Below, in pieces: positions 1-197 of a stretch of 64,000 bases of DNA. Made by a program: the position numbers and the translations under genes. The notes under the pieces are model-generated. The model did no database searches. It was not told the origin of the DNA and saw only the letters and a program-made list of their open reading frames with translations. This stretch comes from Escherichia coli (GTDB taxonomy: Bacteria; Pseudomonadota; Gammaproteobacteria; Enterobacterales; Enterobacteriaceae), in the NCBI RefSeq assembly GCF_003334385.1, contig NZ_QOWN01000006.1; one strand, given 5' to 3'. Position 1 is the stretch's first letter; every line of letters starts with the position of its first letter.

Positions 1-20
1 TTATCGTGAGAGTAATTCAT
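1..20 (-). CDS. insL: IS186 transposase InsL, first 6 codons only (rest lies beyond window edge)
   Basis: ATG at 20-18 on minus strand followed by NYSHD; recalled InsL N-terminus MNYSHDNW. Confidence 0.6.
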
Positions 21-75
21 CGGCACGTTAAATCATATCAGGCGTAATACCACAACCCTTAAGTTAGCGCTTATG
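1..75 (-). mobile_element. IS186 terminal fragment (window begins inside the element); terminal inverted repeat at 53-75
   Basis: Minus strand 75->1 reads CATAAGCGCTAACTTAAGGGTTG... then ATG AAT TAC TCT CAC GAT (MNYSHD), which I recognise as the IS186 end and the start of its transposase; junction abuts a GC-rich target (CCCGGGGGTTTACCCC) typical of IS186 insertion sites. Confidence 0.7.
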
Positions 76-197
76 GGGTAAACCCCCGGGCGCGTTCCTT
101 TATCAAGATGACGTTCGAATATTCCGGCAGGTGCAGTTTGTTTATTCCAGAAAGGCGTTGAGCGCGTATGAATATAATTCTGTGGGATTTGAAGCAT
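76..197 (-). pseudogene. yeaR: yeaR (DUF1971) 5' fragment, first ~41 codons, interrupted by IS186; the in-frame ORF 33-197 runs into IS sequence and stops
   Basis: ATG at 197 (minus); translation MLQIPQNYIHTRSTPFWNKQTAPAGIFERHLDKGTRPGVYP then diverges into IS186-derived codons and TGA at 35-33. Confidence 0.6.

Follow-up and report, generated by a model that had tools for sequence, protein, structure and literature searches.

The window analyzed here, a stretch of 64,000 nucleotides of Escherichia coli DNA, opens next to a gene that is not whole: yeaR, read on the minus strand, departs from its expected sequence near the window edge. This raises the question of what interrupts yeaR, by what route the interrupting DNA arrived, and whether the interruption is peculiar to the strain. 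An initial annotation of the DNA had proposed that the first 75 bases belong to the insertion sequence IS186 and that the insertion is strain-specific. We evaluated these proposals by comparing the window with Escherichia coli MG1655 and with complete E. coli genomes.

The junction between yeaR and IS186

The features identified at the start of the window are as follows:

53..75, minus strand: left terminal inverted repeat of IS186, CATAAGCGCTAACTTAAGGGTTG, with its outermost base, C, at 75 (read directly, exact match)
21..52, minus strand: IS186 leader from the terminal repeat to the transposase ATG, holding the TGA at 35-33 that ends the YeaR'-IS hybrid ORF
1..20, minus strand: 5' end of the transposase gene (insL), with ATG at 20-18, MNYSHD, then 2 nt; cut by the window edge
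76..85, minus strand: copy of the 10-bp target-site duplication at the left IS end, GGGTTTACCC in yeaR sense; the MG1655 empty site has a single copy
76..197, minus strand: 5' fragment of yeaR (DUF1971), with ATG at 197, 40 further codons and 2 nt; 100% identical to MG1655 yeaR
33..197, stop codon included, minus strand: hybrid ORF of 54 aa, comprising YeaR residues 1-41 and 13 IS-encoded residues
198..369, minus strand: upstream region of yeaR (leuE-yeaR intergenic), intact; differs from MG1655 by one SNP, at window position 249

Read on the minus strand, window positions 75..1 match the left end of IS186/IS421 at 75 of 75 bases, and they are the same as the opening 75 nt of the IS186 copy (1,339 bp) located at yeaR in strain CV601. 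Within these bases lie the terminal repeat (23 bp), the leader (32 bp), and the opening codons of the transposase gene, where the ATG (20-18) is followed by AAT TAC TCT CAC GAT (MNYSHD), placing the start of the ORF 55 nt inside the left end. The element (IS4 family; insL1-3 in MG1655) carries the RefSeq label 'IS4-like element IS421 family transposase' and the MG1655 label 'IS186/IS421'. There is no visible difference between these 75 bases and MG1655 copies IS186A, B, and C, and they were invariant in an alignment that also included the left ends of the CV601 and ET12567 copies. The identification of the window start as IS186, and its reading as a terminal inverted repeat followed by transposase codons, was confirmed base for base.

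On the other side of the junction, positions 76-197 match MG1655 yeaR from the ATG through codon 41 (122/122), and identity stops precisely where the IS begins; compared with IS186 and with MG1655 yeaR, the window start is thus identical to each, up to the junction. The minus strand reads toward the junction as ...GGA ACG CGC CCG GGG GTT TAC CC, the GC-rich stretch CCCGGGGGTTTACCCC spanning 91-75, and continues beyond it as C ATAAGCGCTAACTTAAGGGTTG TGGTATTACGCCTGATATGATTTAACGTGCCG ATG AAT TAC TCT CAC GAT AA. At the same point MG1655 reads on as ...GGGGGTTTACCC ACGCCTTTCC, diverging totally from the window. Codon 41 (Pro) is completed by the IS base at 75, and the frame then exits yeaR, such that the intact 119-aa reading frame is absent from the window. 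What follows is a hybrid ORF with the product MLQIPQNYIHTRSTPFWNKQTAPAGIFERHLDKGTRPGVYP + ISANLRVVVLRLI, whose TGA (35-33 in the ORF list) is located 12 nt ahead of the transposase ATG. The ORF list and the alignment both agree with the earlier description of a yeaR frame that is intact for about 41 codons from the ATG at 197 before running into IS sequence and a stop at 33-35, and the sequence bears out the claim that the insertion truncates the YeaR protein after residue 41. The MG1655 reference, unlike the window, has no IS186 at this location and encodes an intact 119-aa yeaR, as stated when the DNA was first annotated.

The empty site, as read in MG1655, shows that the target at yeaR codons 39-42 is GGGG(GTTTAC)CCAC. 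Lee et al. (2016; PMC5009759) derived the IS186 motif GGGG(N6/N7)CCCC from 59 new IS186 insertions. The yeaR target, with CCAC where the published motif has CCCC, differs from GGGG(N6)CCCC by one base and retains 7 of the 8 flanking bases of the motif, in keeping with the initial view that the GC-rich target is of a kind preferred by IS186. The targets of MG1655 IS186A and IS186C, GGGG(ATCACT)CCCC and GGGG(ATAATT)CCCC, have the same geometry, and these copies, like the copy at yeaR, are flanked by 10-bp duplications of a site bounded by a G-run and a C-run. The first 197 nt of the window, used as a query, yielded 100% full-length matches (E = 7e-98) in 195 complete genomes, which excludes a chance match. 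The gene is also in its expected setting, with leuE, dmlR, and dmlA following in K-12 order.

Occupancy of the yeaR site across E. coli

We surveyed 5,426 complete E. coli genomes, and the counts reported here are of genomes and not of independent events. The window's junction was detected at full length in 195-196 genomes (189 of 196 at 99% identity or better), with hosts including humans, pigs, cattle, chickens, and dogs, and also in water samples. These genomes have the junction annotated as an IS421-family transposase between two yeaR pseudogene pieces. A synthetic query, in which the 5' side of yeaR was joined to the inverted right end of IS186, recovered full-length matches in 251 genomes that carry the element at the same base pair in the orientation opposite to that of the window, namely ET12567 and 250 others. 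All 40 of the matches listed for this query were 100% identical, and the structure was confirmed by reading the locus in ET12567. The insertion is therefore not strain-specific as had been proposed.

The yeaR site is empty in 4,963 of the 5,426 genomes and occupied in 446-447 (~8.2%), and the three site classes together account for 5,409-5,410 genomes. The 16-17 genomes outside all three classes (empty, orientation A, and orientation B) may carry a deletion, a different insertion, or a rearranged IS186 junction at yeaR. Of the 5,426 genomes, 2,143 gave a match to the right end of IS186, and 446 of these IS186-bearing genomes (~21%, or roughly one in five) have a copy in yeaR. Neither orientation is much commoner than the other (196 versus 251 genomes), which argues against orientation-specific selection. 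Such near-equal frequencies fit a palindromic target that is hit randomly either way, as Lee et al. describe for other insertion sites (PMC5009759).

Three states of the site are represented within the K-12 background, where MG1655 is empty, CV601 carries the element in the window's orientation with a junction 100% identical to that of the window, and ET12567 carries it in the opposite orientation. The flanks of the element are 100% identical to MG1655 over 6.9 kb in CV601 and over 3.8 kb in ET12567. Because K-12 alone features the empty site and both orientations on 100% identical flanks, the site is a recurrent hot spot. The same gene has been hit in several published cases. These comprise an extra IS186 in yeaR of the MG1655 derivative PFM2 (Lee et al., 2016; PMC5009759), IS186 in yeaR of enrofloxacin-evolved MG1655 (Hoeksema et al., 2018; PMC6307192), and an event recorded as 'yeaR IS186 +6 bp' at 1877853 in two mouse gut populations, where it reached 66% and 10% (Barroso-Batista et al., 2015; PMC4674774 supplement). 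A lineage of BW25113 from a trimethoprim megaplate also acquired an IS insertion in yeaR (10.1101/527788).

The window differs from these K-12 strains with yeaR::IS186 in that it is not K-12 itself (25 SNPs and a 6-bp deletion relative to MG1655). The position given in the gut study, when shifted by roughly 1,975 bp to a later version of the MG1655 sequence, presumably corresponds to the site described here (1879827-1879837), the shift being our estimate. Collectively, these observations show that the insertion arose independently several times in K-12 laboratory lineages and that IS186 has entered the yeaR site, a natural hot spot, independently and in either orientation in many lineages of E. 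coli. IS186 in yeaR is already known as a common, annotated polymorphism, and the window's allele is one instance of it. It should be treated as a hot-spot polymorphism and not as a lineage marker. Recurrent IS186 insertion in either orientation at a G-run/N/C-run target, as at yeaR, has likewise been described for lon (cited in PMC6307192) and for the fimA and menC hot spots (PMC5009759). The insertion at lon hits a promoter and produces a clear phenotype, Lon deficiency, whereas the yeaR insertion is intragenic.

It is possible, although we consider it doubtful, that the high occupancy does not stem from target preference only and that loss of YeaR/YoaG has been positively selected, for example in the gut or during fluoroquinolone or trimethoprim stress. 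The frequencies reached in two independent mouse gut populations and the listing of yeaR as a parallel target in wild-type mice (PMC4674774) point in this direction, as do the correlation of IS186 in yeaR with enrofloxacin exposure (PMC6307192), the appearance of an insertion in the trimethoprim megaplate lineage (10.1101/527788), and the presence of a copy at yeaR in 446 of 2,143 IS186-bearing complete genomes. However, PFM2, CV601, and ET12567 gained the insertion in ordinary laboratory culture, the studies in question report no other kind of loss-of-function mutation in yeaR, and the genome counts are phylogenetically non-independent. Moreover, to our knowledge, YeaR has no known function and no established phenotype. 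An IS186 insertion in yeaR, taken alone, is no evidence of selection in evolution experiments.

Structure of the occupied site

The CV601 element, delimited by CATAAG...CTTATG, is 1,339 bp in length and identical to MG1655 IS186A and IS186C at 1,339 of 1,339 positions. The 370-aa ORF of this identical copy scored 133.3 bits against NF033592 (NCBIfam IS4 family transposase; cutoff 115). The inverted second terminal repeat is present in the CV601, UMNK88, SCU-104, and CFS3292 alleles, which share the window's junction. The gene order in all four is leuE, the yeaR 5' piece, an IS4-like IS421-family transposase, the yeaR 3' piece, yoaG, and yeaQ, and the RefSeq label of the 5' piece is 'DUF1971 domain-containing protein, incomplete, missing C-terminus'. 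Over 25 kb of the window, SCU-104 and CFS3292 rank among the nearest complete genomes, the best match being 99.9% and none reaching 100%.

The flanks of occupied sites read ...CCCGGGGGTTTACCC[IS]GGGTTTACCCACGCC..., with both copies of the 10-bp duplication bordering the IS in UMNK88, CV601, and ET12567 and one copy visible in the window. An alternative delimitation, with an 11-bp duplication and a 1,338-bp element, was rejected. Both orientations show a C after ...TTTACCC where the wild type has an A, and each IS end must supply that C; the element therefore comprises 1,339 bp and the duplication 10 bp.

The UMNK88 copy of IS186 in yeaR, at 1,343 bp, is 4 bp longer than the others and has a transposase annotated as frameshifted; it is a decayed copy. 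At the UMNK88 locus, where IS186 occupies 2733-4075, ~225 bp that are extra relative to MG1655 (7400-7625) lie upstream of or within yeaV, which is annotated with an internal stop. At the CV601 locus, yeaV (7401-8197) is annotated as an N-terminally incomplete pseudogene, yet its DNA matches MG1655, which has an intact yeaV, at 100% identity. Within the compared stretch, the discrepancy is one of annotation and not of sequence.

We are highly confident that the window's junction was produced by a simple insertion of IS186 into yeaR at a near-consensus site, with duplication of 10 bp. According to this explanation, IS186 (synonym IS421) would have transposed into GGGG(GTTTAC)CCAC at yeaR codons 39-42, duplicating GGGTTTACCC and leaving the transposase gene co-directional with yeaR. 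From the relatives described above, we infer a full-length element in the window's genome, with the other junction, to the 3' part of yeaR, a short way upstream of position 1.

The window includes 75 bp of the element, and its far side (the remaining 1,264 bp) is outside, leaving room for a different history in which IS186 recombined after insertion (by inversion or deletion) or was internally truncated, thereby joining the yeaR 5' fragment to unrelated chromosome. Recombination between IS copies is frequent in E. coli according to Lee et al. (PMC5009759), and relatives can carry many copies of IS186, as illustrated by the 22 matching places in SCU-104. Nevertheless, all five occupied loci that were inspected (UMNK88, CV601, ET12567, SCU-104, and CFS3292) are simple insertions with both yeaR pieces adjacent, and beyond the junction the window is perfectly collinear with MG1655 over 63.9 kb, making such a rearrangement very improbable. 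An assembly artefact, whether a contig end collapsed on a repeat or a chimeric join to an intact yeaR, is hardly credible: the window does start 75 bp into a multi-copy repeat, a typical place for a short-read contig to break, but the junction coincides with the IS terminus and with the 10-bp target exactly as in 195-196 finished genomes, an agreement that a random misjoin would not reproduce, and the same allele has been documented experimentally (PMC5009759, PMC6307192, PMC4674774).

Consequences of the insertion and the remainder of the window

YeaR is cut after residue 41 and continues for 13 IS codons to the stop. Given a simple IS186 insertion, the other two thirds of the protein (119 aa when intact) would be encoded beyond 1.34 kb of IS, separated from the start codon. 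The sequence thus shows yeaR to be a null allele. The correct annotation of the window's strain is thus yeaR as a pseudogene interrupted by IS186.

yeaR, the first gene of its operon, and yoaG, which starts 3 nt past the yeaR stop, are co-transcribed from a promoter responsive to nitrate and NO (Lin et al., 2007, as cited in PMC6307192). With the element in place, yoaG would be ~1.35 kb further from this promoter. Judging from this arrangement, yoaG is probably under-expressed, and the nitrate/NO-inducible yeaR-yoaG operon is probably non-functional in the window's strain. Scanning of the whole occupied locus revealed 2 terminator-like sites, versus 2.4 expected by chance, and 0 promoter-like sites. 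The terminator count is not above chance, and the scan is uninformative with respect to polarity or outward promoters. The SNP at window position 249, where the window has T and MG1655 has C, falls between leuE and yeaR, 52 nt before the yeaR ATG and in the region of the nitrate/NO-responsive promoter; it is irrelevant if yeaR is already disrupted.

Read-through from the yeaR promoter into the transposase gene is conceivable, given that this gene is co-directional with yeaR and that the hybrid ORF stops 12 nt short of its ATG. A fold-back that hides the transposase start in read-through transcripts is known for IS10 and IS50. When the RNA fold of the junction was evaluated (126 nt, from the identical CV601 locus), it was no better than that of shuffled sequences (z-score of 0.44), leaving a fold-back that masks the IS186 transposase start at yeaR unsupported. 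A further proposal is that the yeaR promoter drives the transposase and makes IS186 transposition inducible by nitrate or NO, and/or that loss of YeaR/YoaG is adaptive in the gut; we regard this as quite unlikely. If true, nitrate/NO induction would tie IS186 transposition to signals of gut inflammation, and adaptive loss of YeaR/YoaG would account for the presence of a copy at yeaR in approximately one of every five IS186-bearing genomes. Beyond correct annotation the finding matters little, and its useful by-product is a count of site occupancy in both orientations.

Window positions 76-64000 form a single alignment block with MG1655 1879827-1943757, extending from leuE to znuB. Over these 63.9 kb the two sequences differ at 25 mismatches and by one 6-bp deletion, and the alignment shows no other insertion sequence, island, or rearrangement. 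The source strain is phylogroup-A-like and closely related to K-12 without being K-12 itself.

Several of the differences from MG1655 alter proteins. Two SNPs that are 3 bp apart in leuE (window positions 741 and 744; minus strand, 370-1008) result in the substitution Y89D in LeuE, a leucine exporter. K-12, as well as SCU-104 and CFS3292, which are among the closest complete genomes, carry the Y89 form (WP_000457206.1), and Y89D therefore seems restricted to the source strain or to a small clade. A SNP at 1715 in dmlR (minus strand, 1135-2079) results in DmlR L122S. In yoaE (minus strand), a 6-bp in-frame deletion at 21008, in which one unit of the short direct repeat GGCATC GGCATC is lost relative to MG1655, removes two YoaE residues, and a K45N substitution is present elsewhere in the same gene.
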